A stretch of DNA of 64,000 bases from Candidatus Moraniibacteriota bacterium (GCA_013334765.1 JAAXWW010000001.1:39816-103815); one strand, 5' to 3'; shown: positions 2,971-24,259, counted from the first letter of the stretch. Notes: a model not told the origin generated them from the sequence alone. Numbers and translations are program-made.

Positions 2971-3723
2971 ATGAAAAAGGGATATTTATTTCTGGGAATC
3001 GTTTTTTCGCTAGGTGTTTTCTTTGGAAGCTTTTCGGTGGCGAAGGCGGCTGAACAATGCTGCATGACATATAACTCTTCCACTGGCTCCTGGGATCTTA
3101 GTAGCGATGTAACTAACTGTACTGGAACAGTAGTTGATTATAGCTGTTCTGGCTCTTCATCAAGTTCCGATGCGTCCAGCGACAGCTCTTCCAGTATGAC
3201 TTTTGCTAATCCCCTCAAATACGATTCCATAAGCGCTTTCCTGACAGCCTTCCTGGAAAACCTGCAGGGGATAGTGGCGACGATCGCGGTTATCTTCATC
3301 ATCATCGGCGGCATCATGTATATGCTTTCAGCGGGAGATCCGAAGATGATTACCCGTGCCAAGGACGCTATTTTCGCTGCCATAATCGGATTAGCAATCG
3401 TTCTAGCTGCTCCGACATTCTTGAAAGAAGTAAGGAATATTCTGGGTGCGAAAAGCAGTTCTTCAGGCGATCAATCTGTCGACTCAGCCCTCAGTCTCCT
3501 GGATATCGCTAACAACGTCCTTACTTTTCTGTTGTCGATTGTCGGTATCCTTGCTATAATATCGATGGTGATTGGAGCGATAATGTATCTGACGGCATAC
3601 GGGGATGAGGACAGGACCAAGACGGGGAAGAAGATCATAACATATTCCCTGATCGGCATAGCGGTTGCGCTGGCCGCGCTCATTCTGGTCCAGCAAGTCG
3701 GGACGCTTCTGGGGAACAGTTGA
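2971..3723 (+). CDS. T4SS-pilin-like (VirB2/TrbC-like) membrane protein, two tandem pilin-like domains, Cys-rich N-terminal region
   Basis: Signal peptide, a Cys cluster (EQCCM..NCTG..YSCSG) and a Ser-rich linker. Two repeats of the TM-hairpin module carry the conserved motif (..MYMLSAGDP..RAKDAIFAAIIGLAIVLAA / ..MYLTAYGDED..GKKIITYSLIGIAVALAA) shared with the next three genes. Confidence 0.6.
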   Translation: MKKGYLFLGIVFSLGVFFGSFSVAKAAEQCCMTYNSSTGSWDLSSDVTNCTGTVVDYSCSGSSSSSDASSDSSSSMTFANPLKYDSISAFLTAFLENLQGIVATIAVIFIIIGGIMYMLSAGDPKMITRAKDAIFAAIIGLAIVLAAPTFLKEVRNILGAKSSSSGDQSVDSALSLLDIANNVLTFLLSIVGILAIISMVIGAIMYLTAYGDEDRTKTGKKIITYSLIGIAVALAALILVQQVGTLLGNS

Positions 3724-3796
3724 TGAAAAAGATAGAATTTGGATAAAAAACAATTTATGCCATGGGCAAGCGCCCATGATCGGAAGGAGGTGTTAT

Positions 3797-4159
3797 ATGA
3801 CGAATAAAACAAAAAAGGTTGCTTATTTCATCGGATCCCTGGCTCTGACTGCTCCTTTTGCTGTTCTTGCCGCCGGTCTCGATCCGACAGCTGGAGGTAG
3901 CACGGGATTGCCGGACAGTTCCCTTACTGATATAGTGAAGAGCATCATGAACTGGCTCCTGATGATGATCGGAGTGTTCGCAGTCATCGGATTCGCTATC
4001 GCTGGAGTGCTGTATCTCACTGCTGCTGGCAATGAGAAGCAAGTCGATAGGGCGAAAAGCGCTATGACCTATTCCATTATCGGAGTTATCGTGGCTATTG
4101 CCGGATTAGTGGCTCTTAAAGTCGCCAATAATATTCTGGGAAGTTCGAACAATTTCTAG
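3797..4159 (+). CDS. T4SS-pilin-like (VirB2/TrbC-like) small membrane protein
   Basis: AGGAGG sits 7 nt upstream of the ATG at 3797. Signal peptide and two TM helices. Motif LYLTAAGNEKQVDRAKSAMTYSIIGVIVAIAG is paralogous to its neighbours. Confidence 0.65.
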   Translation: MTNKTKKVAYFIGSLALTAPFAVLAAGLDPTAGGSTGLPDSSLTDIVKSIMNWLLMMIGVFAVIGFAIAGVLYLTAAGNEKQVDRAKSAMTYSIIGVIVAIAGLVALKVANNILGSSNNF

Positions 4160-7235: not shown

Positions 7236-8537
7236 ATGCCAAGAAAAAAGGTACAGAAGGAAGAAGAGAGCCAGCCAGGAAAGATGGGTGATTTCGGTTC
7301 AGCTATAACCCAGATCTGCGAAGAGAAAGGGATCTCCAAAGATCGCGTGATCGAAACCATCGAAGCGGCTCTGGCTGCCGCATACAAGAAAGACTATGGA
7401 AAGAAAGGGCAGAACATCCGCGCCGCTTTCAACGAAGTCGACGGCGGAACCAAATTCTATTTAGTCAAAGAGGTCGTTGATGAGACCATGCGGGAATTCG
7501 TTGAGGAAGAAGAAATAGAGGAAGGACAAGAACAATCTGAGAGTGGGCATGTTCATGTTGCGGCAGAGCCCGCCTCCATCCCGCTTAGCGGGACTACGGC
7601 GGGTGAAAACGAGGAAGAAAAACTGCCTCGCTTCAATCCTGAGCGAGATCTGACCATGGACGAAGCCAAGGAAATCAAAGCCGATTCCAAAGTCGGAGAC
7701 ATAATCGAAATCGAACTTCCTGAAGAGAAGGATTATGGCCGAGTTGCAGCACAGACTGCCAAGCAGGTCATTATCCAAAGGATCCGCGAAGCCGAAAGGG
7801 ATTCCATGTATGACGAATACAAGAACAAGGAAGGCGAAATAGTGAGCGGCATCGTTCAAAGAGTCGAAGGCAGGAATGTTTTTATTGATCTCGGAAAATC
7901 TGTCGGCGTGCTCTTCCCTAATGAGCAGATGGAGAGGGAAAACTACCGCATCGGGCAAAGAGTGAAGGTATATCTCATGAAAGTCGATTCAGGTAGCAAA
8001 GGTCCCGGCATAACGCTGAGCCGCGTGCATCCCGAAATGGTCAAGCGCCTTTTCGAGCTTGAAGTCCCTGAGATATTCGCTGGAACAGTCGAAATCAAAT
8101 CCATCGCGAGAGAAGCCGGAGAGCGCACCAAGATTGCCGTCTCGTCGACTGAAGAAGGAATCGATCCGATCGGATCATGCGTCGGGCAGAAGGGAACGAG
8201 AGTGCAGGCCATTATCGACGAGCTGGGCGGGGAGAAGATCGATATTGTGCTTTGGAATGATGACATCTCGAAATTCATTTCAGCTGCGTTGAGCCCTGCC
8301 AAAGTCCTTAATGTCAACATAAACGAAGACAAGAAAGAAGCTATCGTGAACGTTCCTGAAGACCAGCTGTCGCTTGCCATCGGAAAACGCGGACAGAACG
8401 TCCGGCTGGCCGCCAAGCTGACCGGATGGAAGATCGATATTTCCGGCGTGGGAGCGGATGAAAGCAAGACTGAAGAAGAAGCTGAAACTGAAGCAGGATC
8501 CGATGCTCAGGAAGCGGAAGATTCCACTGAAGAATAA
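7236..8537 (+). CDS. nusA: transcription termination/antitermination factor NusA
   Basis: N-terminal NusA domain, S1 and two KH domains (GQRVKVYL.., IGSCVGQKGTRVQAIIDELGGEKIDIV, AIGKRGQNVRLAAKLTGWKIDI) and an acidic tail. The start may be the internal M at 7284. Confidence 0.9.
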   Translation: MPRKKVQKEEESQPGKMGDFGSAITQICEEKGISKDRVIETIEAALAAAYKKDYGKKGQNIRAAFNEVDGGTKFYLVKEVVDETMREFVEEEEIEEGQEQSESGHVHVAAEPASIPLSGTTAGENEEEKLPRFNPERDLTMDEAKEIKADSKVGDIIEIELPEEKDYGRVAAQTAKQVIIQRIREAERDSMYDEYKNKEGEIVSGIVQRVEGRNVFIDLGKSVGVLFPNEQMERENYRIGQRVKVYLMKVDSGSKGPGITLSRVHPEMVKRLFELEVPEIFAGTVEIKSIAREAGERTKIAVSSTEEGIDPIGSCVGQKGTRVQAIIDELGGEKIDIVLWNDDISKFISAALSPAKVLNVNINEDKKEAIVNVPEDQLSLAIGKRGQNVRLAAKLTGWKIDISGVGADESKTEEEAETEAGSDAQEAEDSTEE

Positions 8538-8547
8538 TAACTACTTG

Positions 8548-9489
8548 ATGTCAAAAGATATGGCAAAGACTATTATTATAGGGCACAAAAATCCTGACAC
8601 CGATTCGGTTGTCGCGGCTTTGGCTGCTGAAAGATACTATAAGGAAGTCCTCAAGATAGACGCGAAGGCTTATAGTGCCGGAGAGATCAACAACGAGACC
8701 AAGTTCGTTCTGAAAACGCTTTCATTGAAGGCCCCGAGCCTCTTGAAAGCTGTCAAAAAAGATGACGCAGTTGTCCTGGTCGATCATAACGAATCCGGCC
8801 AGATCGCAGACGGGATATCCGCCTCTCAGATCGCGGGACTGATCGATCATCACAAGATTATTTTCGAAACCGAGCGCCCGATATCCATTCGCGTGGAACC
8901 GATCGGAAGCACCTCATCCCTGATTGCGAAGATGTATTTCGAATCAGGCAGGAAGGTATCCGCAAGCCTTGCCAAACTGCTTCTTTCGGGAATATTGTCT
9001 GACACGCTGGGACTATCCGGACCGACTACGACCGATGAGGACAGGAAAATCGTGAAAGCACTCAATAAGATCGCCAATATCGATATCAAGGAATTCGTCA
9101 GCGAGCTGTTCGCTGCCAAATCCAGCCTCAAAGGGATTTCGATCGAGACGCTGATCACCCAGGATTACAAACTGTTCGAAATGGGGCGCAGCAAGGTCGG
9201 TATCGGAGTCTGGGAGACCACCGATCCTGAAAGCGTGAATGCCGAGAAGGCGAAAATCCTCAAACTACTTTTCGAAAAGAAATTCAAAGAGAATCTGGAT
9301 TACATCTTCTTCTTCGTGGTGGATATCATCAAGCAGGGAAGCGTCCTGTATCTCATAAGCGATAACGAAAGCGAGCTTGCCAAGAAGGTTTTCAAGGGAA
9401 AGATCGAGGATAACGGAATGGTTCTTGAGGGAATAGTTTCCAGAAAGAAGCAGATGGCTCCGGTTCTGACCGCGGCATTAAGCAAATAA
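8548..9489 (+). CDS. ppaC: DHH-family phosphoesterase, most like family II (Mn-dependent) inorganic pyrophosphatase
   Basis: IIIGHKNPDTDSVVAALA N-terminus, DHN and DHH motifs (VVLVDHNE, GLIDHH) and a DHHA2-like C-terminal region. Confidence 0.7.
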   Translation: MSKDMAKTIIIGHKNPDTDSVVAALAAERYYKEVLKIDAKAYSAGEINNETKFVLKTLSLKAPSLLKAVKKDDAVVLVDHNESGQIADGISASQIAGLIDHHKIIFETERPISIRVEPIGSTSSLIAKMYFESGRKVSASLAKLLLSGILSDTLGLSGPTTTDEDRKIVKALNKIANIDIKEFVSELFAAKSSLKGISIETLITQDYKLFEMGRSKVGIGVWETTDPESVNAEKAKILKLLFEKKFKENLDYIFFFVVDIIKQGSVLYLISDNESELAKKVFKGKIEDNGMVLEGIVSRKKQMAPVLTAALSK

Positions 9490-10852: not shown

Positions 10853-11437
10853 ATGCAGAATCAATACCTTATCCCGACAGTCATCGAAAAAACCGGCTAT
10901 GGGGAGCGGGCCTATGACATATATTCGAGGCTTCTCAAGGACAGGATAATTTTTCTTGGCGGTCCGATCGATGATGTCTCGGCCAATAGCGTGATAGCTC
11001 AGCTGCTGTTCCTGGACTCCCAGAACGGCAAGGAAGATATCAAGCTCTATATCAATTCGCCAGGCGGATCAGTCACTTCAGCGCTCGCCATATATGACAC
11101 TATGCAATATGTGAGGGCTCAGGTCTCGACGATCTGTATCGGCATGGCAGCGTCGGCTGCAGCGCTTCTCCTGGCGTCAGGCGCCAAGGGGAAAAGGATA
11201 ATCCTGCCGAACGGGGAAGTCATGATCCATCAGGTGATGGGCGGAGCCCAGGGGCAAGCGACGGATATCGATATCCAAGCCCGCCATATCCTGAAGATCA
11301 AGGAGCGGCTCAATGAGATATTGTCCAAACACACCAAGCAATCGGTTGCCAAGGTGGCCAAAGATGCCGAGCGCGATTATTTCATGAGCGCCGAAGAGGC
11401 GAAAAAATACGGAATAGTGGACAAGATCATCAAATAG
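10853..11437 (+). CDS. clpP: ATP-dependent Clp protease proteolytic subunit
   Basis: [37 protein letters not shown] with the catalytic Ser/His/Asp context; 194 aa. Confidence 0.9.
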
Positions 11438-11509: not shown

Positions 11510-13069
11510 TTATTCCAATGCCTCGAGCAGGCTCTCCCCGGTCATTTCCTTGGGTTTTTCTATTTGCATGATGTCCAGGATGGTCGGGGATATATCGCTC
11601 AGGAGGCCGATTACTTTCGGTTCTCCCTGATCCCTTTTCTTTTCGGAATGGTTCTCGTTGGTGATGAACCAAAGCGGGACCGGGTTGGCGGAATGTTCGG
11701 TATCTTTCTCTCCAGTGTGGCGGTTTATCATCTCTTCGGCATTGCCATGGTCGGCCGTTATGAGCAGGCACCCGTTTTTCAAGAGGATCTCTTTGATCAA
11801 TCTCTCAAGGCAGGAATCGATCGTTTCGACGGCTTTTATAGCGGCCTGTTCGTTTCCGGTATGGCCGACGATATCGGCGTTGGCGAAATTGACCAAGACG
11901 AAATCGTATTTGTCTTTTTCCACCAGGCCGATGATCTTGTCGGTTATTTCATTCGCGCTCATTTCCGGCGCTTCGTCGAAGCTGCCCACGTTCTTCGACG
12001 GGATGATGACCCTGTCTTCTCCGGGATACGGTTCTTCGTTGCCTCCGTTGAAGAAATATGTGACATGGGCGAACTTTTCCGTCTCAGCGATTCTCAGCTG
12101 CTTCATCTTGTGATCAGCTAGGACTGACGCGAGGCACACCTTGACTTCGATAGGAGGGAAAGCGACTTCTGTCGGGAGGTCTTCCTCGTATTGGACCATT
12201 GTCGCGAACAGGATGTTCTTTCTCCGGCTGCATTTGAATTTGTCGAACCCCGGAACAACGAAGGCTTTCGTCATCTGACGCGCCCGGTCTTCGCGGAAGT
12301 TGAAGAAGATAACCGCGTCATTGTCTTTTATCTCTCCGATCGGCTGGCCGTTTTCAGTAACGGCAGCTGGCTCTATGTATTCGTCGAATATTTCCTTGGC
12401 ATATGACTTCTGGAGATAATCTATCGGGTCCTCGGTTGTCGGACCTTTGCCTTCGACTATGGAACAATACGATTTCTCGACCCTGTCCCAGTTGTTGTTG
12501 CGATCCATGCCATAATATCTTCCGCCGATGGTCGCTATGCGTCCGACTTTGTATAATGCTGTCCTGTTCTGCAGCTCTCTTAGGGTTTCTACTCCCGAGG
12601 TCGGAGGGGAGTCCCGTCCATCGATGAAGGCGTGGATGAATACCCGTTCCAATTTCTGATCGCGCATAAGCTCAAGAAGGGCATACAGGTGATCCAAATT
12701 GGAATGGATGCTGCCTTTTCCGACAAGGCCCATGATATGGAGGGCGCTTTTATTATCCTTGGCGTGATTGATGGCTTTCAGGAAGGCCGGGTTCTTGAAA
12801 AACTCCCCGCTTTGGATGGACATAGTTATGCGGGGAAGGCTTTGGTATATGACTTGCCCGGTTCCGAGCGATATGTGCCCGACTTCCGAGTTTCCCGGCT
12901 CTCCCCAGGGAAGGCCGACTGAGATGCCGGATGCCTGAATGGCGGCATGCGGATAGAACTCGTTCATTTTTTCGATGGTAGGCAATTCGGCTTCGGCGAT
13001 GGCGTTTCCGCGATCCTTGTCTCCTAGTCCCCATCCGTCCAGGACAACCAATACGACAGGTTTTTGCAT
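11510..13069 (-). CDS. gpmI: 2,3-bisphosphoglycerate-independent phosphoglycerate mutase
   Basis: N-terminus MQKPVVLVVLDGWG; alkaline-phosphatase-like metalloenzyme layout; 519 aa. Confidence 0.9.
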   Translation of the reverse strand: MQKPVVLVVLDGWGLGDKDRGNAIAEAELPTIEKMNEFYPHAAIQASGISVGLPWGEPGNSEVGHISLGTGQVIYQSLPRITMSIQSGEFFKNPAFLKAINHAKDNKSALHIMGLVGKGSIHSNLDHLYALLELMRDQKLERVFIHAFIDGRDSPPTSGVETLRELQNRTALYKVGRIATIGGRYYGMDRNNNWDRVEKSYCSIVEGKGPTTEDPIDYLQKSYAKEIFDEYIEPAAVTENGQPIGEIKDNDAVIFFNFREDRARQMTKAFVVPGFDKFKCSRRKNILFATMVQYEEDLPTEVAFPPIEVKVCLASVLADHKMKQLRIAETEKFAHVTYFFNGGNEEPYPGEDRVIIPSKNVGSFDEAPEMSANEITDKIIGLVEKDKYDFVLVNFANADIVGHTGNEQAAIKAVETIDSCLERLIKEILLKNGCLLITADHGNAEEMINRHTGEKDTEHSANPVPLWFITNENHSEKKRDQGEPKVIGLLSDISPTILDIMQIEKPKEMTGESLLEALE

Positions 13070-15421: not shown

Positions 15422-15492
15422 CGGGATGTGGTGTAGTGGTAGCACGATTGGTTTGGGACCATTTAGCCCGAGTTCGACTCTCGGCATCCCGA
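15422..15492 (+). tRNA. tRNA-Pro (anticodon TGG)
   Basis: Acceptor CGGGATG/CATCCCG with discriminator A. D-arm GTGT/GCAC. Anticodon loop TTTGGGA. T-arm CCGAG-TTCGACT-CTCGG. One U-U mismatch in the anticodon stem. No encoded CCA. Confidence 0.6.
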
Positions 15493-15539
15493 CAGGGGTT
15501 TGTGTTTATTGAAAAATGGTTTTTGGGTTTCTATGAAAG

Positions 15540-15680
15540 AAGTCGAGCTAAGGCTCGGCGAAAGTCTCCTTCGCGACCATCAGCGGGCTTTGCCCGCGTG
15601 CCGTCGCTGTGATGAGACGAAGGCCTCCTTCGCGCCTTCCTAGCGGGCTTTGCCCGCTGGAAGCCGCTACGGCGGCTGAA
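15540..15680. repeat. tandemly duplicated ~60-bp structured spacer between tRNA-Pro and tRNA-Gly
   Basis: Two copies of the hairpin GCGGGC-TTT-GCCCGC (15583-15597 and 15643-15657). Each is preceded by a CTCCTTCGCG-containing hairpin (GCGAA..TTCGC / CGAAGG..CCTTCG). Confidence 0.5.
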
Positions 15681-15681
15681 A

Positions 15682-15756
15682 GCGGGTGTCGTATAGTGGC
15701 TATTATATCAGCCTTCCAAGCTGAGGAGGGGGGTTCGATTCCCCCTACCCGCTCCA
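15682..15756 (+). tRNA. tRNA-Gly (anticodon TCC), CCA encoded
   Basis: Acceptor GCGGGTG/TACCCGC. Anticodon stem TCAGC/GCTGA with loop CTTCCAA. T-arm GGGGG-TTCGATT-CCCCC. Discriminator T followed by CCA. Confidence 0.75.
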
Positions 15757-17510
15757 AGGACAATTTCTTGCCCCGAAACACCTAGAACAGATTGAAGAAT
15801 ATCTTGGGGCAACTTCAATTTAATATGAAGACGGAAAGGGATCATTTGATCCTTTTTTCGTTTCCCAGCGATGATGTCGGCATTCTCTACTGGTCGAGAA
15901 TATACAACGATTTCATCAATGAGAGAATGCAGTAGCGTGTAAGTATCAGCTCTGTTTTCTGCTATGTTGTCGAGAGTATGGATATATTTTTGAGAAAACA
16001 GCTCCAGAGTCTTTTCATAACCCTGCGAAAGTGAATTTTCGGAAATTCGGCGGTCAATTTCTTCAATATCTTTTTTATATTTTATTTCAACATCATTCAA
16101 TTCCTTATATCGCCTGCCAAGTTCTGTTCCATCTATTACGCTCAAAGAGTGTTGCTCTCTCAATCTCTCCTTACGATTTGGAAGAGCATTTATCAATTTA
16201 GCCATTCCTTCACGTTGCATGCTTAACTGCTTCAATGCGACTCTTGATGATTGCAGTTTTCTTTGATGATTATAGGTTGCAAGAGGATTTGCCAAAAGCC
16301 TTTTACTGAAGCCTACTATATACTCTTCTATTTCTTTAGCAGGCAGTGGTATAGTATGACAAGTTGTTGAATACTTGCTAGGGTTTTTCTTTCCGCACTT
16401 ATATGAATATGTGAATTTATTACTGCCTTTTTTAAGTTCCTTTCTATCGCCAACCCAGTGCATCATTCCGGTTTTTTCTTCAGGGTTGTGGCATGCGTCG
16501 CAAGTCAAAAGGCCACTAAGAAGATAGATGTGTCCACTTTTTGTTTTTTTCTTTTCGTGTTTGGAAGACTTCAACAAACGTTGCGTTTTTTCAAATGTTA
16601 AAGGGTCGATAATTATTGGGAATTGAAATTCTCCAAGTTTCCATTCTTCTTTTGAAAGTTGTTTGCCTTTTTTCTTCTTATCATAATAGTATTTTCCGAT
16701 ATAAATTTCGTCTTGCAAAATCAATCTTATTCTTTCGGGTCTCCAAAAATTGTGCGGATTTTTCTTTTTTGTTTCACCGCTTTTTTTCTTGTGCAAAATT
16801 GCAGAGGCTTCTGGCGAAGGGTTTCCTGCGGAAGTCAGATGAGCTGCAATTTCATATGCACTTTTTTTCTCATTCAAAAACATATTGAAAATAAGCCTTA
16901 CAATAACTGCTTCCTCTTCAAGAATTTCCAAGTGCTTGTCCTTATTTTTAATGTATCCAAATACTGCAAACGAACCCATTGGGATCCCACTTTTTATTGC
17001 TTGGTTTCTGCCATCCTGAGTGCGTTGCTTTATGGTCTCAACTTCAAGCTCTGCTATTATTCCGACAATGCCAAAAATTGCCTTACCAAAAGGTGTTGTG
17101 GTGTCTATGCTTTCATTTGCTGAAATAAATTTAACACCAATTTCATCAAAAAAATCAACGATATTCAAAAGGATTTTTAGTCTTCTGGCAAAACGATCTA
17201 TTTTATATACTGCTACAACATCAAATGGCCTGTTGTCTTTCGGTGCCATTGTTAAATCCTCCATGAGCTGTGCAAAGGCTGGTCTTTCTTCGATGGGAAT
17301 TGTTCCGCTAACTCCATCGTCAATATAGATATGCTTTTCTCCTGCAAGGCTCCAAACTCCACTGCCATCTTCAAGTTTACCTTTTGACTTAATAAGATTC
17401 AAAAGGGCTTCTTTTTGCATATCTAAGCCATATTTTTCAGCCTGTTCATCGGTTGATACTCTAATATAAAGAGCGACTCTTAGGCTTTCTGGATTTGTAT
17501 TTGTTTGCAT
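15708..17510 (-). CDS. large serine recombinase (phage-type serine integrase)
   Basis: N-terminal resolvase catalytic domain (RVALYIRVSTDEQ.., catalytic Ser context). A 600-aa protein with a Cys-containing recombinase/zinc-ribbon region. The 3' end overlaps tRNA-Gly by about 49 bp. Confidence 0.85.
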   Translation of the reverse strand: MQTNTNPESLRVALYIRVSTDEQAEKYGLDMQKEALLNLIKSKGKLEDGSGVWSLAGEKHIYIDDGVSGTIPIEERPAFAQLMEDLTMAPKDNRPFDVVAVYKIDRFARRLKILLNIVDFFDEIGVKFISANESIDTTTPFGKAIFGIVGIIAELEVETIKQRTQDGRNQAIKSGIPMGSFAVFGYIKNKDKHLEILEEEAVIVRLIFNMFLNEKKSAYEIAAHLTSAGNPSPEASAILHKKKSGETKKKNPHNFWRPERIRLILQDEIYIGKYYYDKKKKGKQLSKEEWKLGEFQFPIIIDPLTFEKTQRLLKSSKHEKKKTKSGHIYLLSGLLTCDACHNPEEKTGMMHWVGDRKELKKGSNKFTYSYKCGKKNPSKYSTTCHTIPLPAKEIEEYIVGFSKRLLANPLATYNHQRKLQSSRVALKQLSMQREGMAKLINALPNRKERLREQHSLSVIDGTELGRRYKELNDVEIKYKKDIEEIDRRISENSLSQGYEKTLELFSQKYIHTLDNIAENRADTYTLLHSLIDEIVVYSRPVENADIIAGKRKKDQMIPFRLHIKLKLPQDILQSVLGVSGQEIVLGAGRGNRTPLLSLEG

Positions 17511-17750
17511 AAAGTTATAACAAGTAAAAGGTACGAATAGGTATAAGTAACGGAGGGAGGCATTTTTTGTATTTATAGCTTAACCGCCTTTGCCTAAGAA
17601 ATTGAAAAATGAATATAAAAAACAGCCAAAAAGACTGACGGGATAAAGACTAAAATTTTATAGTTTTTCCAAAACATTCAATTACAACTAAAATATAAAC
17701 CTACTTTTAAAGTAAGACTTATCTTAGATAAATGCAAGACCCCACAGATC

Positions 17751-18374
17751 TTAATACTTTATGATTTTGTTAATGGCAGCAGAAGAATCATCAACACCTT
17801 TTAAATAAATTGAAAATTGATGAAATCCAGTGTTGGCATTTTTAATATATTCTCCCACAAAGTGCTTGCCGACATAAGCAGAATCCGCATTCGTAGCATT
17901 AGCAATATTTGGCTGTATCGTTGCTGATTTTTTGTCCGTATGAATAAAAATAAAAGCACTGCGTTCATTTTGCATATCATCTTTGATTGTTTGCCCCAAA
18001 GCTGTCATATCGTCAAAATTGAGATATTTAGGATCAATGACTATCCTTTCGCCAGTTCCGCCGTCGGGAATGCTCCATTTTTGAACCACTTCGTAAGGAA
18101 TTTTTTTGCTGGCCTGGGTTATAGGATTGCTGCTTTTATTATTGTTTGCTTGTGGCCGATTGGGTTGGCTTTTTGTTGCAGCTATAATTGAAGATATTAT
18201 TGGAATCCCAATCAAAATAACCAAAATTAGGACAAGCCAAGGCAGACAACCTTTTTTCTTTTTTATTACCACTTCCATTGGCTGCTGATTTTTTCCGGAA
18301 AGATCGCTTCCGCAATGTTTGCATTTGATTGCTTCGTCCTGAATTTCTTCAGAACAAAAAGAACACTTTTTCAT
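17751..18374 (-). CDS. zinc-ribbon membrane protein (hypothetical)
   Basis: N-terminal CxxC-x12-CxxC ribbon (CSFCSEE..CKHCGSD), one TM helix and a 140-aa extracytoplasmic domain. Confidence 0.5.
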   Translation of the reverse strand: MKKCSFCSEEIQDEAIKCKHCGSDLSGKNQQPMEVVIKKKKGCLPWLVLILVILIGIPIISSIIAATKSQPNRPQANNNKSSNPITQASKKIPYEVVQKWSIPDGGTGERIVIDPKYLNFDDMTALGQTIKDDMQNERSAFIFIHTDKKSATIQPNIANATNADSAYVGKHFVGEYIKNANTGFHQFSIYLKGVDDSSAAINKIIKY

Positions 18375-18933
18375 AGACTTTTCGTTTAATTTTTAAAGTG
18401 CTGGTCGGGATACACAAAACCCCGTGCCAGCTAGGTCTTGCGACCCTATATCCGTTTCCAGATATAGCCCAATCACGAGTTGCTGAACGCGGGGTTCAGT
18501 GTCGTGATTGGGTCTTGTATGCCATACCGTAAAATTTTACTTCTACGGGTTAGGCAAATTAAATTGTAACCTTATTATGCCTTATAACTGCCGAAAAGGC
18601 AAAATTTGGCTATTTTTTGACTGCTAAGAAAGGAAATGCTCTAATATGGGCAATCCTACCAAATTACTGATTAGCTCCCTTAAGGCCTAGTCAGGGAGTC
18701 TAGGAGTGAAAAACAGACGGTAATTTTTATCCAAACAAATAGTTTATTTTTGTCCGCTCGTGTCCGTTTATTTTTTTCCAAATCTGTCCCTCTTGATCCG
18801 TTTTTATTTTATACTAAATTAGGCTTATCTTGGCTCAACTCAGGGATTATTAGCACATTTTACTAAATTGAATTATTTTACTGTCCAAATGAACAAAGGA
18901 ACATAAAAAAATGATGTAAAACTGGATAAAAAT

Positions 18934-18980
18934 AGGGCGGAAGTTTTTTCTGACAACTCTGTCAAATTGACTTCCGCCCT
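18934..18980 (-). terminator. intrinsic terminator for the 19024..19467 gene (nested hairpin)
   Basis: On the - strand the 11-bp stem AGGGCGGAAGT/ACTTCCGCCCT, with an inner 5-bp stem TGACA/TGTCA, is followed by ATTTTTAT. It lies 44 nt downstream of the stop. Confidence 0.55.
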
Positions 18981-19023
18981 ATAATATTTACAAATATGAT
19001 GTCTGCTATACTGGCAACATCGT

Positions 19024-19467
19024 TTAGTCTTTGGATTTATCAAATAGAAAGTGGAGCAGCTGTTCATTTTCCTCCTCCATTGAACTGATTGCTACACTAA
19101 GGGGCTGTCTTTTTGGACCAAGATCTATAACAGGATTAACTGAACCATAAAAATAAAAACCTATATTATTATCAGACTTTTTCTTGCTAGCATCCTTTCT
19201 AAAATAAACCTCAAGACCTTCTTCTTCAATTTTGTGTTTTTTAGCAAAATTATCGAATGTCTTAATTATAAAATCAGAAAATTCCAGTTGAGTTATGCCC
19301 CCTTCTAAACTTATAACAAATCTTCTTCTAGTCTTAGGTTTAAGATTATCAGATGAAAAATTCACCAGTTCTTCGTTAGAACTATATTTTTCAATAGCTT
19401 CACTGGTATCATTTGGTTTTTTATTATCTAAATGCTTACTATTTCGACTGTGTTGCGTTTTTGCCAT
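19024..19467 (-). CDS. hypothetical protein
   Basis: 147-aa ORF, K/E-rich, no recognised motif. Confidence 0.45.
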   Translation of the reverse strand: MAKTQHSRNSKHLDNKKPNDTSEAIEKYSSNEELVNFSSDNLKPKTRRRFVISLEGGITQLEFSDFIIKTFDNFAKKHKIEEEGLEVYFRKDASKKKSDNNIGFYFYGSVNPVIDLGPKRQPLSVAISSMEEENEQLLHFLFDKSKD

Positions 19468-19543
19468 AAAAGTGACGATTTTATGCGATTTGATTATTAA
19501 CGCCTATACGGTGAATTTCTTTGTCTATATTGTAGCATATCAA

Positions 19544-19598
19544 GATTAAATTGTATTTTTCATTGATATTTATATTGTGGGGTAGAAATTTGCCGATC
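19544..19598. repeat. ~55-bp direct repeat, copy 1 (second copy at 21447..21500)
   Basis: AAGATTAAATTGTATTTTTCATTGATATTTATATTGTGGGGTAGAAATTTGCCG versus AAGACTAAATTGTATTTTTCATTGATATT-ATATTTCGGGGTAGGAATTTGCCG. Confidence 0.7.
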
Positions 19599-19761
19599 CA
19601 AAAATTTCTCATTTTGCAACCTAACGAAGCCTAACTTTTTTAATATAAAAATTCTATTTTAATTGTATTATGTCATACAACGTCAAGATATTATTGGAAT
19701 GTTGATTTTTTAGTATAGCTGTGCTTTATTAGATTAAGGTCTTGGTAAACACATTATAATA

Positions 19762-20550
19762 ATGTATAATAATAATATGGCAAAAGCGAAAAAAGAAACA
19801 AGAAAGAAATCTTTTAAATACGGAAAAAACTACCTTTCTAAGGTAATTTTGAGGTTGGATTTTGATAAAATAGAATTGGGATCACTCGAAAATTTTCATA
19901 ATGATGAGTTAAAGAAATTCTTTCCATTATTTGCTGAGAAAAAAGATCTTGAAATTGGTCTTTCGGGAGATTTAGTTTCTAATAAAATAAGTCAGACCAG
20001 AAATGAATCCGTATCCTATGTCTTTGAAAACTCGGAGAAAACGAAACGCTTTAGAGTTGGAGAAAGATATGTTTTTATTGAATATGACAAGTATAGTAAT
20101 TCCGAAGAATTATACAAAGATATAAAAGTAGTTATTGATAGATTTATTTTAACTTTTGGTGTAAAAACAATAAACAGGTTGGGATTAAGGTATATAAATG
20201 AGATAAAATTGAAAGAACCGAATGCTTTAGATTGGAAAAATTACATAAATAAAGATCTGCTAGGTGGTTTAAATTTTTCCAAAAATGAAATTCTTTCCCG
20301 TTCTTTAAGTCAGCTCGTTTTTAAAAAAGACAAGGGTGATATGTCTTTTACCTATGGAGTATTTAATAAAGAATTTCCAAGCGAGATAAACATTAAAGAG
20401 TTCATACTTGATTTTGATTGCCATTCAATCTTGCCTTTTGAGCTTTTAGAAGAAAACATTCTAAATAGAATAGAACTATATCATTCTCATATAGAGGACT
20501 TATTTGAAAAGTGTATAACGCAGAAATTTCGTGATTTTTTAAATAAATAA
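19762..20550 (+). CDS. hypothetical protein (island cargo)
   Basis: 262-aa ORF with a basic N-terminus and an internal GLRYIN segment. I half-recall this signature from an uncharacterised protein family but cannot confirm it. Confidence 0.5.
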   Translation: MYNNNMAKAKKETRKKSFKYGKNYLSKVILRLDFDKIELGSLENFHNDELKKFFPLFAEKKDLEIGLSGDLVSNKISQTRNESVSYVFENSEKTKRFRVGERYVFIEYDKYSNSEELYKDIKVVIDRFILTFGVKTINRLGLRYINEIKLKEPNALDWKNYINKDLLGGLNFSKNEILSRSLSQLVFKKDKGDMSFTYGVFNKEFPSEINIKEFILDFDCHSILPFELLEENILNRIELYHSHIEDLFEKCITQKFRDFLNK

Positions 20551-20563
20551 CTAGCTAGCTATT

Positions 20564-20761
20564 ATGTTAGGAAAATCATCTTCTGAAAATTACAGAGATA
20601 TCTTTGAAGATAAGGCTGATGAATACTCCAAAAAAGATAATTCTGAAACAAGGGATTTTTCTGGAACCATAAATTTATTTACATCTGGAACAAACAAAGA
20701 GAGGTATGTAATTAGAAAGGCTACTGTTGAAAAACATCTTTATGTTCGAAAGTCAAATTAA
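20564..20761 (+). CDS. small ORF (65 aa), overlaps the start of the next ORF in another frame; possibly the N-terminal part of a frameshifted gene
   Basis: ORF track only. It overlaps 20727..21374 by 35 nt (20727-20761), or 20 nt if the downstream gene starts at 20742. Confidence 0.3.
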   Translation: MLGKSSSENYRDIFEDKADEYSKKDNSETRDFSGTINLFTSGTNKERYVIRKATVEKHLYVRKSN

Positions 20762-21374
20762 GAAAAAGTATCAGATTTGTGGCATAAGAACTTGCCAGGG
20801 TGACATTCTTAGGGATGTCACTATTGCATTTGGGCTAGAATTGAGTGATAGCAGTGAGGGCGAAAGTGAAATTGAATTAGAACATAGGTATTATAACTAT
20901 GCAGTAGTATTGAGTCAGGACTGTGATTTAAGTAGTGATTATAATGAGAGAAATAAAAATGCAGAAATCAAGGAAAAAATAAAAAATAACGAACTGGAAG
21001 AAGAAAAAGCGATTATAAGCAATGATAAGTATTTGCCTGCTATTTTAATATGCCCAGCTTATTTATTATCTGATTTTGTAAACGGATCGCATATAACTTC
21101 TTGGAGTATGAATAGTGAGCTAAAAAACGAAAATAATCAAAAAAAGTTAAAAAGTAATAATGAATTTAAACGATATCATTACATAAGAGGCGATAGTGAT
21201 CTTGGGATACCCGAGTTAGTATTGGATTTCAAGCACTTTATGTCGGTGCCAAGGGATACTTTATATAAAATACATAATCAAGTTTATATAGCCACAATAA
21301 GCGAATTGTTCCGAGAGGAGTTGTCTCAGCGATTTTCAAACTATATTTCAAGAATAGGCTTACCAGAAATTTGA
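20727..21374 (+). CDS. hypothetical protein (island cargo)
   Basis: 215-aa ORF; alternative start at 20742 (MFESQ..). No recognised domain. Confidence 0.45.
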   Translation: MKNIFMFESQIKKKYQICGIRTCQGDILRDVTIAFGLELSDSSEGESEIELEHRYYNYAVVLSQDCDLSSDYNERNKNAEIKEKIKNNELEEEKAIISNDKYLPAILICPAYLLSDFVNGSHITSWSMNSELKNENNQKKLKSNNEFKRYHYIRGDSDLGIPELVLDFKHFMSVPRDTLYKIHNQVYIATISELFREELSQRFSNYISRIGLPEI

Positions 21375-21446
21375 GAGCTTGTTAGTTTCTGATTAAGTTA
21401 TTTGTGCCTATTCGCTGAATCTTCTTGTCTAAATCACAACAAATAA

Positions 21447-21500
21447 AGACTAAATTGTATTTTTCATTGATATTATATTTCGGGGTAGGAATTTGCCGCC
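21447..21500. repeat. ~55-bp direct repeat, copy 2
   Basis: See copy 1. It lies immediately upstream of the long palindrome. Confidence 0.7.
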
Positions 21501-21549
21501 CTCAGAAAACAAAAAACAGCCCTTAACGGGCTGTTTTTTGTTTTCTGAG
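21501..21549. terminator. 22-bp perfect inverted repeat / bidirectional terminator-like hairpin upstream of the R-M cassette
   Basis: CTCAGAAAACAAAAAACAGCCC-ttaac-GGGCTGTTTTTTGTTTTCTGAG. A degenerate direct copy lies at 23790..23830. Confidence 0.6.
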
Positions 21550-21748
21550 CGGCATCTATCTATGGCTGGGATACGGGGTCAAAATATGAGAAATAAAAAT
21601 GCGTTGGGTAATTCTGGCGGCAAAAGTCTCAATGATTGTAGGTTAGTTGAAAGATGCCTTTAATTGTGAATTTTTTGATTTTGATGATAAGATAAACATA
21701 GGAAATCATTATAAAAAGCATAGCTTATCCCTTTAGAAGAAAGATCAT

Positions 21749-22585
21749 ATGGCTAAAAAAACTCAATCAAAAAGATTAACGAATCAGCATAAAAAATCTC
21801 AAGGCGTGGTTGGTATATTTGGAAATGAAGCAAGGTCGCATGATATAACAGTTGGTAAGATTTCACATCTTGTAACCGAACAGCTTGAAAAGGAATTTCC
21901 TCGATTATCTTTTAGATATAGAACGGGTATAAAAAAGAAAGAAATAAACGAAGCCTTAAAGAAAGTTGATTCAGAATTAGGGCAAACCATTTTTGTATTA
22001 AATTCAAGCATTAAGCCTGATGGAGGAATAATAGAAGTGAAAGACGATAATGGTATTTGGAGAGTAGTACTCGTAACGGAAGCTAAACATCAAGGAAAAG
22101 ACATTGAAAATATCCAAAAAGGAAATCTGGTTGGCAAGAATAACGATCAAGATTTGATGGCTGCTGGCAATGCAATAGAAAGATCGCATAAAAACATATC
22201 AGAAATTGCCAACTTTATGCTGCATGAATCCCATTTTCCTTACATCTTATTTCTGGAAGGATCAAATTTTATTACTGAAACCATTTCAATTAAAAGACCT
22301 GACGGAAGAGCAGTTACCCTTGATTATAACTCAGGCATGCTGAATAGATTAGACAGATTGACTTCTGCGAATTATGGAATGCCAATTAATACCAATTTAT
22401 GCAAAAATAAATTTGTTAAGCATAAAGATAAAACAATTATGCTTCAAGCAGCTTCGATATATACACAAGGCAATGGAGGAAAATGGGATAAAAAAGAAAT
22501 GTTCGACATTATGGTGGAAACTTCAAAAGTCTCTCTTCAGGTACTGGGAAGTGAAATATTTAAACAAATAACCAAGCGCAAATAA
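21749..22585 (+). CDS. ecoRIR: type II restriction endonuclease, EcoRI family (predicted GAATTC specificity)
   Basis: 278 aa, alignable from memory along its whole length with R.EcoRI: SQGVVGIFG, LSFRYR, EINEALKK, SSIKPDGGIIEVKDD, EAKHQGKD (the PD..D/ExK active site), DQDLMAAGNAIERSHKNISEIANFML, SHFPY.LFLEGSNF, NSG.LNRLDRLT.ANYGMPIN, IMLQAASIYTQG. Confidence 0.85.
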   Translation: MAKKTQSKRLTNQHKKSQGVVGIFGNEARSHDITVGKISHLVTEQLEKEFPRLSFRYRTGIKKKEINEALKKVDSELGQTIFVLNSSIKPDGGIIEVKDDNGIWRVVLVTEAKHQGKDIENIQKGNLVGKNNDQDLMAAGNAIERSHKNISEIANFMLHESHFPYILFLEGSNFITETISIKRPDGRAVTLDYNSGMLNRLDRLTSANYGMPINTNLCKNKFVKHKDKTIMLQAASIYTQGNGGKWDKKEMFDIMVETSKVSLQVLGSEIFKQITKRK

Positions 22586-22622
22586 TCAAAACCAAGAGAT
22601 TTATTAATTTTTTAAATATAAT

Positions 22623-23723
22623 TTGATAATGGCAAGGAACGCAACAAACAAATTATTGCAAAAAGCTAAAGAGTCAAAGAGTGACGAGTTTTACACTCAA
22701 CTTTCAGATATAGAAAGCGAATTGCAATATTATAAAGATCATTTTAAAGGCAAGGTGGTTTTTTGTAATTGTGATGATCCTGGAACTAGCAACTTTTTTA
22801 AGTATTTTGCCTCAAACTTCAAAGAATTAGGACTTAAAAAATTAATATCTGCTTGTTATAGAAGACAAGAAAGAAATTTATTCAATACTAAAGAATATGA
22901 AAGCGGTTTTTTTTATGAATATTCAGGTGCTAAAGTCGAAAAAACTAAGCCAAGTTTAAATGAGGTTGTTCATTTTAAAGGGGACGGGGATTTCCGTAGC
23001 GCTGAAAGCATTGAGCTGCTGAAACGATCCGATATAGTTGTCACTAATCCGCCATTTTCATTATTCAGGGAATACGTAGAACAATTAATTAGATACGATA
23101 AGAAATTTTTGGTAATCGGTAATATTAATGCTATTACCTATAAAGAAATTTTTAAATTAATCAAGGGAAACAAAGCGTGGTTGGGAATAAATCTAGGTAG
23201 GGGAATTTCAGGTTTTATTGTGCCGGAACATTATGAGCTTTACGGTACAGAAGCTCGTATTGATAATCTTGGGAATAGGGTAGTTTCACCGAATAATTGT
23301 TTATGGCTAACAAATCTAGACACCCCCAAAAGGCATGAGGACATGACTCTTGCAAAAAGCTATTTTGGAAACGAAATTGAGTATCCTCGTTACGATAACT
23401 ATGATGGAATCAATGTGAATAAAACAAAAGACATTCCTTCGGATTATTCAGGTGTTATGGGTGTGCCTATAACCTTTTTGCATAAATACAATCCAGAACA
23501 GTTTGAAATAATCAAATTCAGAAAAGGAAATGATGAAAAGGATTTATCAATAAATGGAAAATGTCCATATTTTAGGATTCTAATCAAAAATAAGCGGATA
23601 CAGGAAAGTGAAAAAAAGAATCGCCGAGGTGAAAGGGAAATTGAGAGGTATCTTAAAAATCCTATTGAAATTACTGTAAGAGGTAATGCTTATGATTTTG
23701 AAGGTCCCTTATTGAGTTTGTAG
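22623..23723 (+). CDS. ecoRIM: N6-adenine DNA methyltransferase, M.EcoRI-like
   Basis: The N-terminus MARNATNKLL.KAK.SKSDEFYTQ, CNCDDP, SNFFKYFA.NFK.LGLKKLIS, DIVVTNPPFSLFREY (the NPPF motif), GRG.SGFIVPEHYELYGTEARID and KCPYFRILIKNKR all match my recollection of M.EcoRI. The probable start is the ATG at 22629. The gene lies about 40 bp downstream of R, on the same strand as in the EcoRI system. Confidence 0.8.
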   Translation: MIMARNATNKLLQKAKESKSDEFYTQLSDIESELQYYKDHFKGKVVFCNCDDPGTSNFFKYFASNFKELGLKKLISACYRRQERNLFNTKEYESGFFYEYSGAKVEKTKPSLNEVVHFKGDGDFRSAESIELLKRSDIVVTNPPFSLFREYVEQLIRYDKKFLVIGNINAITYKEIFKLIKGNKAWLGINLGRGISGFIVPEHYELYGTEARIDNLGNRVVSPNNCLWLTNLDTPKRHEDMTLAKSYFGNEIEYPRYDNYDGINVNKTKDIPSDYSGVMGVPITFLHKYNPEQFEIIKFRKGNDEKDLSINGKCPYFRILIKNKRIQESEKKNRRGEREIERYLKNPIEITVRGNAYDFEGPLLSL

Positions 23724-23798
23724 TCTGTCGGACAGCTTTTGTTGAAGAGGTTGGGTTCTAGTTTACCCTAACCGCATTAACTAACCAGCTCACAAAAC

Positions 23799-23827
23799 AA
23801 AAAACAGTCCTTTGAGGGCTGTTTTTC
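23799..23827 (+). terminator. intrinsic terminator after the methyltransferase gene; degenerate copy of the 21501 palindrome
   Basis: AAAAACAGTCC-tttga-GGGCTGTTTTT with one G-U pair. The left flank CTCACAAAACAAAAAACAG matches CTCAGAAAACAAAAAACAG. Confidence 0.6.
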
Positions 23828-23903
23828 ATTCTTTATTGACAGCGGCCTTCTTGAGTGATAATACTGAATCAGTTCCTGAACCCTTAAATGCGAGGAGGCA
23901 TAT

Positions 23904-24092: not shown

Positions 24093-24259
24093 CATAACTG
24101 CACGCCGCCAAGATTTTCAACGGGCGCCGAAAGATATCTTCCGGCGCCCAACTACTTTCAAATCCTTGATTTTTAGGATCGGATATGCTATAATGACGGT
24201 AATAGAGATGAGTAGGAGACGGGTTTTGCCCGCCTTTTTTCTTTATTCAAAGCCAAGAA

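Follow-up and report, generated by a model that had tools for sequence, protein, structure and literature searches.

The window analysed here, a 64,000-nucleotide stretch of a Candidatus Moranbacteria genome from the Candidate Phyla Radiation (CPR) (GCA_013334765.1 JAAXWW010000001.1:39816-103815; positions follow the numbering of the whole stretch), carries directly downstream of its tRNA-Gly(TCC) gene an insert that is real, foreign and composite. The insert very probably represents two acquisitions, namely a 5,749-bp element of a large serine recombinase (LSR), in which the attachment site of the free form, attP, would lie inside the integrase open reading frame (ORF), and a separate EcoRI-type restriction-modification (R-M) cassette. 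Judged by its sequence, the core of the insert belongs to a large family of CPR serine-integrase elements that target tRNA ends and whose integrase gene spans attP. The initial annotation had proposed a horizontal acquisition at tRNA-Gly that depends on a large serine integrase and bears defence-type cargo, and the present analysis supports that proposal. Its description as a small integrative element or defence island holds insofar as a mobile insert with defence cargo is concerned but fails in treating the region as one 8-kb element, as two units are found.

The tRNA-Pro(TGG) gene (15422-15493) and the tRNA-Gly(TCC) gene (15682-15756) both lie on the + strand according to ARAGORN and Rfam, and the tRNA-Gly is identical over all 75 nt to that of six relatives. 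From about 16.0 to 23.8 kb the GC content is 0.28-0.37 instead of 0.47-0.50, with values of 0.336 for 15755-21503 and 0.333 for 21504-23788 against 0.476 and 0.472 in the left and right flanks, in line with the AT-rich island that had been recognized 3′ of tRNA-Gly. An antisense LSR of 600 aa overlaps the tRNA 3′ half by 49 nt, equivalent to a stop codon, 15 full codons and part of another, which agrees with the overlap of about 16 codons noted earlier, and the cargo listed at that time (a Zn-ribbon membrane protein, several unknown ORFs and an EcoRI-type R-M pair) is all present. Two details require revision. The crossover is placed at the discriminator N73 and C74 rather than within the tRNA gene body, and host DNA restarts at about 23789, the start of the native tRNA terminator, rather than with the core genes near 23.85 kb (23835); genes directly past this terminator have a GC content of 0.47-0.49. 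The features that define the element are the following.

15682-15756, + strand: tRNA-Gly(TCC), the integration target, with positions 1-73 derived from the host (ARAGORN; Rfam, 57 bits).
15708-17510, - strand: LSR in its integrated form, 600 aa (Pfam, phrog_95, alignment and tail reconstruction).
15730-15777, no strand assigned: predicted attL, with the B arm at about 15730-15752 (T-arm and acceptor 3′ strand), the core TC at 15753-15754 and the P′ arm at 15755-15777.
21382-21503, - strand: predicted element side of attR (repeat copy B), with the P arm at 21479-21501 and the core TC at 21502-21503.
21504-21549, + strand: T1, the predicted B′ side of attR, a copy of the tRNA-Gly terminator (AAAACAAAAAACAGCCC...GGGCTGTTTTTT) with a perfect 22-nt inverted repeat that resembles the terminators of relatives.

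The element boundaries follow from a shared arm and core architecture. The arms are 23 nt long counted from the first T of TTCGGGG, are identical to each other at 15-18 of 23 positions, and each end in TTCGGGG(C/T)AA. In the P′ arm of attL this motif (match at 15765-15779) reads TTCGGGGCAAGAA on the minus strand and codes for the residues SGQE of the LSR, and an inverted copy of the arm is found at the far ends of four elements and within copy B of the window (21391-21498). All five elements for which both ends are available have matching core dinucleotides (positions 24-25) in attL and attR, and a register of 23 alone satisfies all five. Read on the tRNA strand, elements at tRNA-Gly have the core TC and those at tRNA-Phe, tRNA-Val and tRNA-Pro the core AC, corresponding to the discriminator N73 followed by C74. 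With cores at 15753-15754 and 21502-21503, the element would therefore extend over 15755-21503, or 5,749 bp. The predicted joints in the window are TTCGGGGCAAGAAATTGTCCTTG-GA-GGGCGGCAAATTCCTACCCCGAA for attP and GTTCGATTCCCCCTACCCGC-TC-AGAAAACAAAAAACAGCCCT for attB, and a short attP and attB with imperfect inverted arms and a shared 2-nt core are thus found computationally. In the proposed mechanism, attP would comprise about 48 bp (two 23-nt imperfect inverted arms and the 2-nt core) and attB the 3′ end of the tRNA gene, such that integration would keep the tRNA body whole and shift its terminator 5.7 kb away. The attB predicted for a second element (L169) is matched by the empty site of another locus (L014; CCCGCTC AGTCAAAAAAGTT), identical for 12 nt past the core.

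Other properties of the sites are shared across the family. Counted from the core, CGAAC occupies positions 16-20 in the B arm, where it belongs to the universal T-loop, and positions 20-24 in the P arms, 4 nt further out; in LSR sites generally, the motif bound by the zinc-ribbon domain lies about 5 bp closer to the core in attB half-sites than in attP half-sites. A-richness is the sole common feature of the B′ arms, and the B′ arm in the window is the A-rich start of the terminator. Close relatives all carry GGTTCGGGG(C/T)AA(G/A)AA just ahead of the tRNA. Among 120 homologs, the arm motif is translated as SGQ in 46, FGV in 36 and VRG in 4, and the use of three reading frames indicates that it is conserved as DNA and not as protein. 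A tyrosine-integrase island of the Islander type was considered and rejected, as the insert contains neither a Phage_integrase domain nor a tRNA 3′ repeat: no direct repeat of the tRNA 3′ half is found at the far end, as the ends of the element share only the 2-nt core, and a degenerate stretch at 23748-23776 lies outside the element, and a full pseudo-tRNA at the right end is likewise missing among Rfam matches at E ≤ 1.

The EcoRI pair is placed outside the element because the only intact arm pair with matching cores bounds 15755-21503. Over the whole of the terminator, arm and adjoining block, copy B and T1 align with four far ends from other elements and are the sole fit to attL. It is very unlikely that the insert is instead a single 8-kb element with its far end at about 23.78 kb, in which the junction of copy B and T1 would be an internal relic. 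Such an arrangement would account for the equal GC content of the two halves (0.336 and 0.333) and for the degenerate stretch at 23748-23776, which resembles a tRNA 3′ end or a P arm and is followed by a second, native-type terminator (T2). However, no TTCGGGG arm is located 23 nt from any TC at T2, no register gives a matching core, and an unrelated 24-nt motif occupies the place expected for the arm, whereas copy B and T1 align end to end with four true far ends and obey the core rule.

By domain content and site architecture, the encoded protein classifies as a large serine integrase. Pfam assigns a Resolvase domain (PF00239, E 6.7e-33) to residues 12-175 and a Recombinase domain (PF07508, E 1.9e-18), while Zn_ribbon_recom (PF13408) scores 24.6 bits, slightly below its cut-off of 25.3, and the PHROG assignment is the integrase phrog_95 (E 4.4e-100). 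In an alignment of 33 homologs, the catalytic S19 in RVSTDEQ and four cysteines (C337, C340, C372 and C384) are invariant, and the ORF in the window is intact. The last 14 residues of the integrated form are antisense-tRNA sequence in place of the native tail. More than 400 homologs exist, the best 120 being 46-68% identical, and every named one originates from CPR bacteria. Their C-termini share KLKLPQDIL...SGQ, and many continue with GNRTP, GIRTH, GFEPW or DSNP, which are translations of antisense T-arms.

Running on into a tRNA is characteristic of the family. The LSR stop codon lies within an antisense tRNA in the window, in L169, L164, L165, L167, L085 and L086, and in one element represented by L171-L176; the tRNAs at these eight stops are Gly(TCC) in two cases and Pro(TGG), Val(GAC), Val(TAC), Phe(GAA), Lys(CTT) and Glu(CTC) in one each. 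In L084 the ORF traverses an entire tRNA-Cys. Overall, eleven CPR elements have an LSR gene ending in, or in one case running right through, an antisense tRNA, and nine different tRNA genes are used. Of the more distant LSR loci, taken from metagenomes and IMG/VR, 103 were compared and only 2 have the same ending. These two LSRs (28-31% identity), L114 (stop at 11638, tRNA-Pro) and L142 (stop at 11386, tRNA-Ala), end 21 nt into the antisense tRNA, suggesting that tRNA-end targeting may have arisen in other LSR clades as well. The metagenome scan with the LSR alignment used generic catalytic motifs and returned 4 close relatives.

The entry of the window ORF into the tRNA would be a consequence of the location of attP inside the LSR coding sequence, since integration would then exchange the native 39-residue tail for host sequence. 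When the two ends were joined in silico for the five elements with both ends, the LSR ORF is open across the reconstructed attP in all five and continues into an alignable tail (...EKYNLTLICYNLDKEIRRIGV...) of 35-42 residues past the core. In the window the native tail comprises 39 codons at 21382-21501 and is readable only in the excised form. A far-end block of about 100 nt followed by a small gene is found in four other elements and at an internal repeat copy in the window (copy A), and copy B has the block without the gene. The stop codon of the extended ORF overlaps the start of this small gene as ATGA in L165 and by 8 nt in L167, and precedes it by 14 nt in L164. In the circular form, an ORF of about 624 aa would thus cross attP into the conserved tail and end where the small gene, termed p147, begins. 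Integration would part the tail and p147 from the body of the LSR, and the integrated ORF would run into the antisense tRNA to the first stop codon. We infer that the exchange of the tail and the uncoupling of p147 constitute a switch between the free and integrated states.

The far-end block was at first read as a promoter, a reading that was replaced by that of a coding sequence after frame analysis. A related proposal is that the tRNA overlap and the open frame across attP are without function, and that the block is kept as a promoter or operator and an att arm rather than as protein. In its favor, the block holds a sequence resembling TGCTATAAT, the tRNA-derived tails differ in length and frame, and the arm motif is conserved as DNA. 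The pattern of variation nevertheless points to a translated tail and renders this proposal unlikely. At codon positions 1, 2 and 3 of the tail block, 8, 6 and 16 of 21 columns are variable, respectively, and the ratio of nonsynonymous to synonymous variation (pN/pS) is 0.22 in the frame continuous with the LSR compared to 1.14 and 0.73 in the other frames. The tail arginine codons vary synonymously (CGA AGA, CGT CGT, CGC CGG), and in L169, where the arm is in a different frame, a spacer shorter by 4 nt restores the frame of the tail block. The coupling of the stop codon to the next gene also argues for translation, as does a contiguous ORF of 661 aa in a database homolog (P0113) that carries the tail. 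A promoter scan left the far-end block unflagged, with a total count no higher than in shuffled sequences.

The 661-aa homolog is encoded on a 3,960-nt contig (L324) from Logan accession SRR6837571, which contains an intact attP (TTCAGGGTAAAAATCCGTTATTT-GT-GAGAAACAGGTTTTCACACGGAA) and a p147-like gene that overlaps the LSR at its stop codon, and has no tRNA. Its ends share a 13-nt terminal overlap across which an ORF wraps, and on these two grounds the contig apparently represents a free circle of about 3.95 kb of a family member. The contig also encodes a DUF5681 protein and two membrane proteins. Both the DUF5681 gene and the common occurrence of LSRs as phage integrases, reflected in phrog_95, would suit a small prophage or phage satellite. 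Against such an origin, no capsid, terminase, replication or lysis gene was detected in the element with Pfam and PHROG, no member of the LSR family is present in IMG/VR (best match 34% identity), and the attP form in IMG/VR gave 0 matches with a strict pattern and 65 with a loose one, all of them unrelated hairpins without a nearby LSR; a phage nature is accordingly the most improbable of the explanations considered.

The small protein coupled to the LSR in the reconstructed circles is represented in the window by the following feature.

19024-19467, - strand: p147, a conserved small core protein with the C-terminal motif PLxVxxSSxExENxxLLHFLFxK.

It is homologous to the small far-end protein encoded by the first gene in L165, L167 and L164 and, in L169, by the gene after an inserted minus-strand gene. 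Representatives are rare, with 5 among 1.84 billion proteins in an exhaustive search and 2 in a word-index search, and an AlphaFold2 model has a predicted local distance difference test score of 42 and is unusable. Position and conservation make p147 a candidate directionality factor or regulator. Iteron-like GT(T/G/A)AGGTT repeats are located upstream of the p147-like gene in the window (19600-19645) and in L169 (2400-2760) and may be operator or binding sites. A divergent gene of the HTH_17/MerR type, excisionase-like and encoding 64-67 aa, is located upstream of the LSR in L165 (9673-9876, - strand) and in L172-L176 (9684-9878, - strand, in L172) and is absent from the window; its product is another candidate directionality factor.

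Several points weigh against the account of two acquisitions and an integrase gene divided at attP. The att sites are assigned by comparison, and the comparison with empty sites draws on other species, the best relatives having 84-89% RNase Y identity. The circularity of L324 is deduced from a 13-nt overlap and ORF continuity. The tail block resembles an extended -10 promoter (TGCTATAAT) and may serve as a promoter too. The tail of copy B departs from the consensus (VFICCDLDKKIQRIGT), and the true end has no adjacent p147 gene, such that this copy may be decaying. Lastly, the account with two units leaves unexplained the origin of the R-M cassette and the duplication of the terminator as T1 and T2.

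The properties of the locus in relatives support an insertion. A scan with the flanking RNase Y as query yielded 80 loci, nearly all from Candidatus Moranbacteria or Parcubacteria, in which the order is iPGM, RNase Y, HU, tRNA-Pro, tRNA-Gly, a variable segment of 0.4-7 kb, an amidase gene and rpoB; the window has 9.3 kb between tRNA-Gly and the amidase gene, compared to 0.4-7 kb in relatives. Most relatives have a terminator of the type AAAACAAAAAACAGTC...GCTGTTTTT within a few bases 3′ of tRNA-Gly, and this terminator is present twice in the window, as T1 (21504-21549) and T2 (23800-23826). The doubled terminator and the variable spacing in relatives indicate a hot spot of variation downstream of tRNA-Gly and an insertion in the window. 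A shared presence of the same genes at this locus in all relatives, which would have spoken against recent acquisition, is not observed, as the relatives vary here and the terminator mostly follows tRNA-Gly directly.

Two independent contigs from the same Logan sample (SRR11449211; L002 and L003) end and begin, respectively, inside tRNA-Gly at about 15698-15709 with a 12-nt overlap, a break that fits a branch in the assembly graph, for example from an occupied and an empty site or from a repeated tRNA, and is no proof of such a branch. An inverted T-loop motif (GGRAATYRAAC) is found 36-64 nt past tRNA-Gly, just after the terminator, in 6 of 32 relatives (L016, L033, L034, L041, L048 and L057) where about 0.17 would be expected, and the L016 motif is fused to a direct copy of the 3′ end of the tRNA. 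These motifs may be recombination scars or spare half-sites.

Whether the element is still mobile bears on a further alternative, that it is an old, fixed and immobile remnant whose LSR is decaying or is kept for another role. The composite structure with the relic copy A, the divergent tail of copy B, the true end lacking p147 and the failure to find an empty site in the same species all suit a remnant. The LSR ORF is nonetheless intact with its RVSTDEQ motif, the two arms are likewise intact and have the same core, the GC contrast is strong and not ameliorated, and the break of the two Logan contigs fits a graph branch without proving it. A fixed remnant is on balance rather unlikely.

The second unit, at about 21550-23788 (2.3 kb), is the R-M cassette, which lies outside the LSR element between T1 and T2. 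Its features and those of the right end are as follows.

21749-22585, + strand: EcoRI-type endonuclease (PF02963, E 1.4e-148, 257 of 257 model positions).
22623-23723, + strand: EcoRI-type methyltransferase (PF13651, E 3.9e-131).
23748-23792, + strand: putative right-end relic, a degenerate T-arm-like or P-arm-like stretch with the 24-nt motif TAACCGCATTAACTAACCAGCTCA (alignments).
23800-23826, + strand: T2, the second copy of the tRNA-Gly terminator (terminator scan).

Around three quarters of the aligned residues of the endonuclease are, by eye, identical to those of E. coli EcoRI (PDB 1ckq, E 4e-134), and the cassette classifies as a Type II R-M system of the EcoRI type with a presumed specificity for GAATTC. 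T1 and T2 have 87% identity across 38 nt and a weaker similarity that extends for about 65 nt. The 24-nt motif (TAACCGCATKAACTARCCAGCTCA) is found at 23769-23792 in the window, at 13415-13438 in L051, and at 8773-8796 and 10329-10352 in L061, and closes gene cassettes downstream of tRNA-Gly in these three genomes. In L051 it abuts the stop codon of an rve transposase gene and may therefore be the end of an insertion sequence. GAATTC is absent from 10472-35835, a 25-kb region that includes the island and host genes such as rpoB and rpoC, and occurs at 29 sites in the window compared to 47.6 +/- 7.0 expected; the gap may reflect EcoRI-type selection or chance clustering.

In addition to the integrase and p147, the LSR element contains the following features.

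17751-18374, - strand: single-pass membrane protein with a Zn-ribbon, 207 aa (weak N-terminal Zn-ribbon matches in Pfam and PHROG; hydrophobic segment in the sequence).
18433-18556, - strand: LOOT RNA (RF03000; 79.9 bits against a gathering cut-off of 46.4, model positions 1-121), 59 nt upstream of the membrane-protein gene.
19487-19595, - strand: copy A, a putative internal relic of an element end, consisting of the tail-coding block (EKYNLILICYNIDKEIHRIGV) and a degenerate P arm directly ahead of p147.
19762-20550, + strand: p262, TIGR04255 family, the conserved partner of p215 (NCBIfam, E 2.3e-27, 96 bits against a cut-off of 30).
20727-21374, + strand: p215, with a MazF/CcdB/Kid-type toxin fold.

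The p262 and p215 genes are also adjacent in an unrelated 3.2-Mb genome, where they are located between transposase genes, and are read as a putative module of the toxin-antitoxin or abortive-infection type; p215 has no match in Pfam, PADLOC or NCBIfam, and no papers on TIGR04255 were found. An additional ORF, p65 (20564-20761), is probably not a gene, as no ORF was called between the members of the homologous pair in L322. In other members of the family, the cargo includes Tsp45I and type I R-M systems as well as AbiTii, AAA_15/21, SLFN and SNase genes.

The LOOT RNA is found in further elements at 3929-4048 (- strand) in L165 and 8303-8432 (- strand) in L167 by Rfam. A covariance model built from the three copies detected one more in the 1.6 Mb of fetched loci, at 3647-3765 (+ strand) in L088, 6 kb upstream of a distant LSR; an nhmmer search returned nothing, and the covariance model was required. 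In the 1.6 Mb searched, LOOT is found solely inside elements carrying a serine recombinase. Each copy is located 58-74 nt upstream of a small gene, and the three such genes in the window, L165 and L167 encode non-homologous membrane proteins. LOOT may be a leader or toxin-control RNA of CPR mobile elements, and no literature on its function was found beyond the designation as a metagenomic-based RNA.

Copy A is a direct repeat of copy B and has a consensus-like tail block, though its core does not fit. It is probably a relic end left by a younger element, which would have entered an older one at its tRNA-proximal attL before a deletion took place, and suggests that cargo would have been gained by tandem integration and subsequent deletion. 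As attB is strongly asymmetric, the use of attL as a pseudo-attB is plausible, as tandem integration requires. Precedent for tandem LSR cassettes is given by the staphylococcal cassette chromosome (SCC) elements (PMC11470126).

The element shares properties with several known systems without coinciding with any of them. Tn4451 and Tn4453, moved by the LSR TnpX, also have an LSR gene whose state differs between the circular and the integrated form; in these transposons a promoter is created at the circle joint, whereas here the joint would complete a coding sequence. The LSRs of phages and integrative and conjugative elements (phiC31, Bxb1, A118/LI, TP901-1 and SPbeta SprA) have the same resolvase, recombinase and zinc-ribbon domains with four invariant cysteines, and a short attP with inverted arms, a 2-nt core and a motif nearer the core in the B arm than in the P arm. 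They differ from the family described here, which targets the tRNA 3′ terminus at N73/C74, uses an asymmetric attB without a B′ motif, would place attP in the ORF and is hosted by CPR bacteria. Similarity of the window LSR to solved LSRs is remote (best E 1e-13) and confined to the catalytic domain. The use of a tRNA or tmRNA gene by serine integrases had been described as previously unreported by Mageeney et al. (2020), who saw 14 cases among 297 (PMC7192596).

The closest parallel to the proposed gene organization is found in the SSV-type 'suicidal' tyrosine integrases of archaeal viruses and plasmids, whose genes also contain attP and are therefore split on integration into the tRNA target. 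These differ in being tyrosine recombinases from which the split removes the catalytic part, whereas in the serine recombinase described here the last 35-42 residues would be exchanged and the catalytic and DNA-binding domains stay together. Split tyrosine integrases containing their own attP have been described as exclusive to archaea (PMC8371274). No report of an attP-in-ORF split was found for a serine recombinase or for CPR bacteria, which is weak evidence as the search was incomplete.

SCC and SCCmec, moved by the Ccr recombinases, are likewise small LSR-moved cassettes without transfer genes that occupy the 3′ end of a conserved gene, carry defence and other cargo and form tandem or composite arrays with relic att sites (PMC11470126), but their target is rlmH and their attP is not inside the recombinase gene, whereas the target here is a tRNA and the window LSR scores 99 bits with CcrC and 90 bits with CcrB against NCBIfam cut-offs of 900. 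Tycheposons and Islander-type islands resemble the family as cargo-carrying elements that pile up at the tRNA genes of streamlined genomes, and differ in mostly using tyrosine integrases and having a direct repeat of the tRNA 3′ end, compared to 2 shared nucleotides and no replication genes here. For tycheposons and cryptic elements, 910 of 937 have a tyrosine recombinase and the rest an LSR (bioRxiv 10.1101/2020.12.28.424599).

Taken across the family, a broader scheme can be put forward tentatively, and is possible more than probable, in which the universal T-loop and acceptor end of any tRNA gene would provide a single strong attB half-site with crossover at N73/C74. With attP inside the ORF, the circle would yield a full-length enzyme in translational coupling with p147, and the integrated copy an enzyme with an exchanged tail and no such coupling, which would act as a built-in switch of the direction or activity of recombination. 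The tRNA-proximal attL would retain the strong half-site, its re-use would build tandem cargo, and LOOT would be a component of the elements, a large family not described so far. Serine integrases are tools for genome engineering, and their natural targets are almost never tRNA genes. The family appears to recognize a universal feature of tRNAs and to cut the acceptor end at a defined nucleotide, and its movement among at least nine tRNA genes renders the question of how LSRs change target directly testable. If the proposed organization is correct, a coding sequence completed only in the circle would be a very simple state-dependent control of recombination, so far described only for archaeal tyrosine integrases, and the elements would be the bacterial serine-recombinase counterpart of the archaeal split integrases. 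The CPR or Patescibacteria, in which mobile DNA is little known, would gain a concrete and widespread vehicle for defence and toxin genes, and the orphan LOOT RNA would gain a genomic context.

A further repeated sequence is located in the spacer between tRNA-Pro and tRNA-Gly, where AGCGGGCTTTGCCCGC... is present in two copies 60 nt apart (15582-15608 and 15642-15668), with a weaker third copy at 24218-24244.

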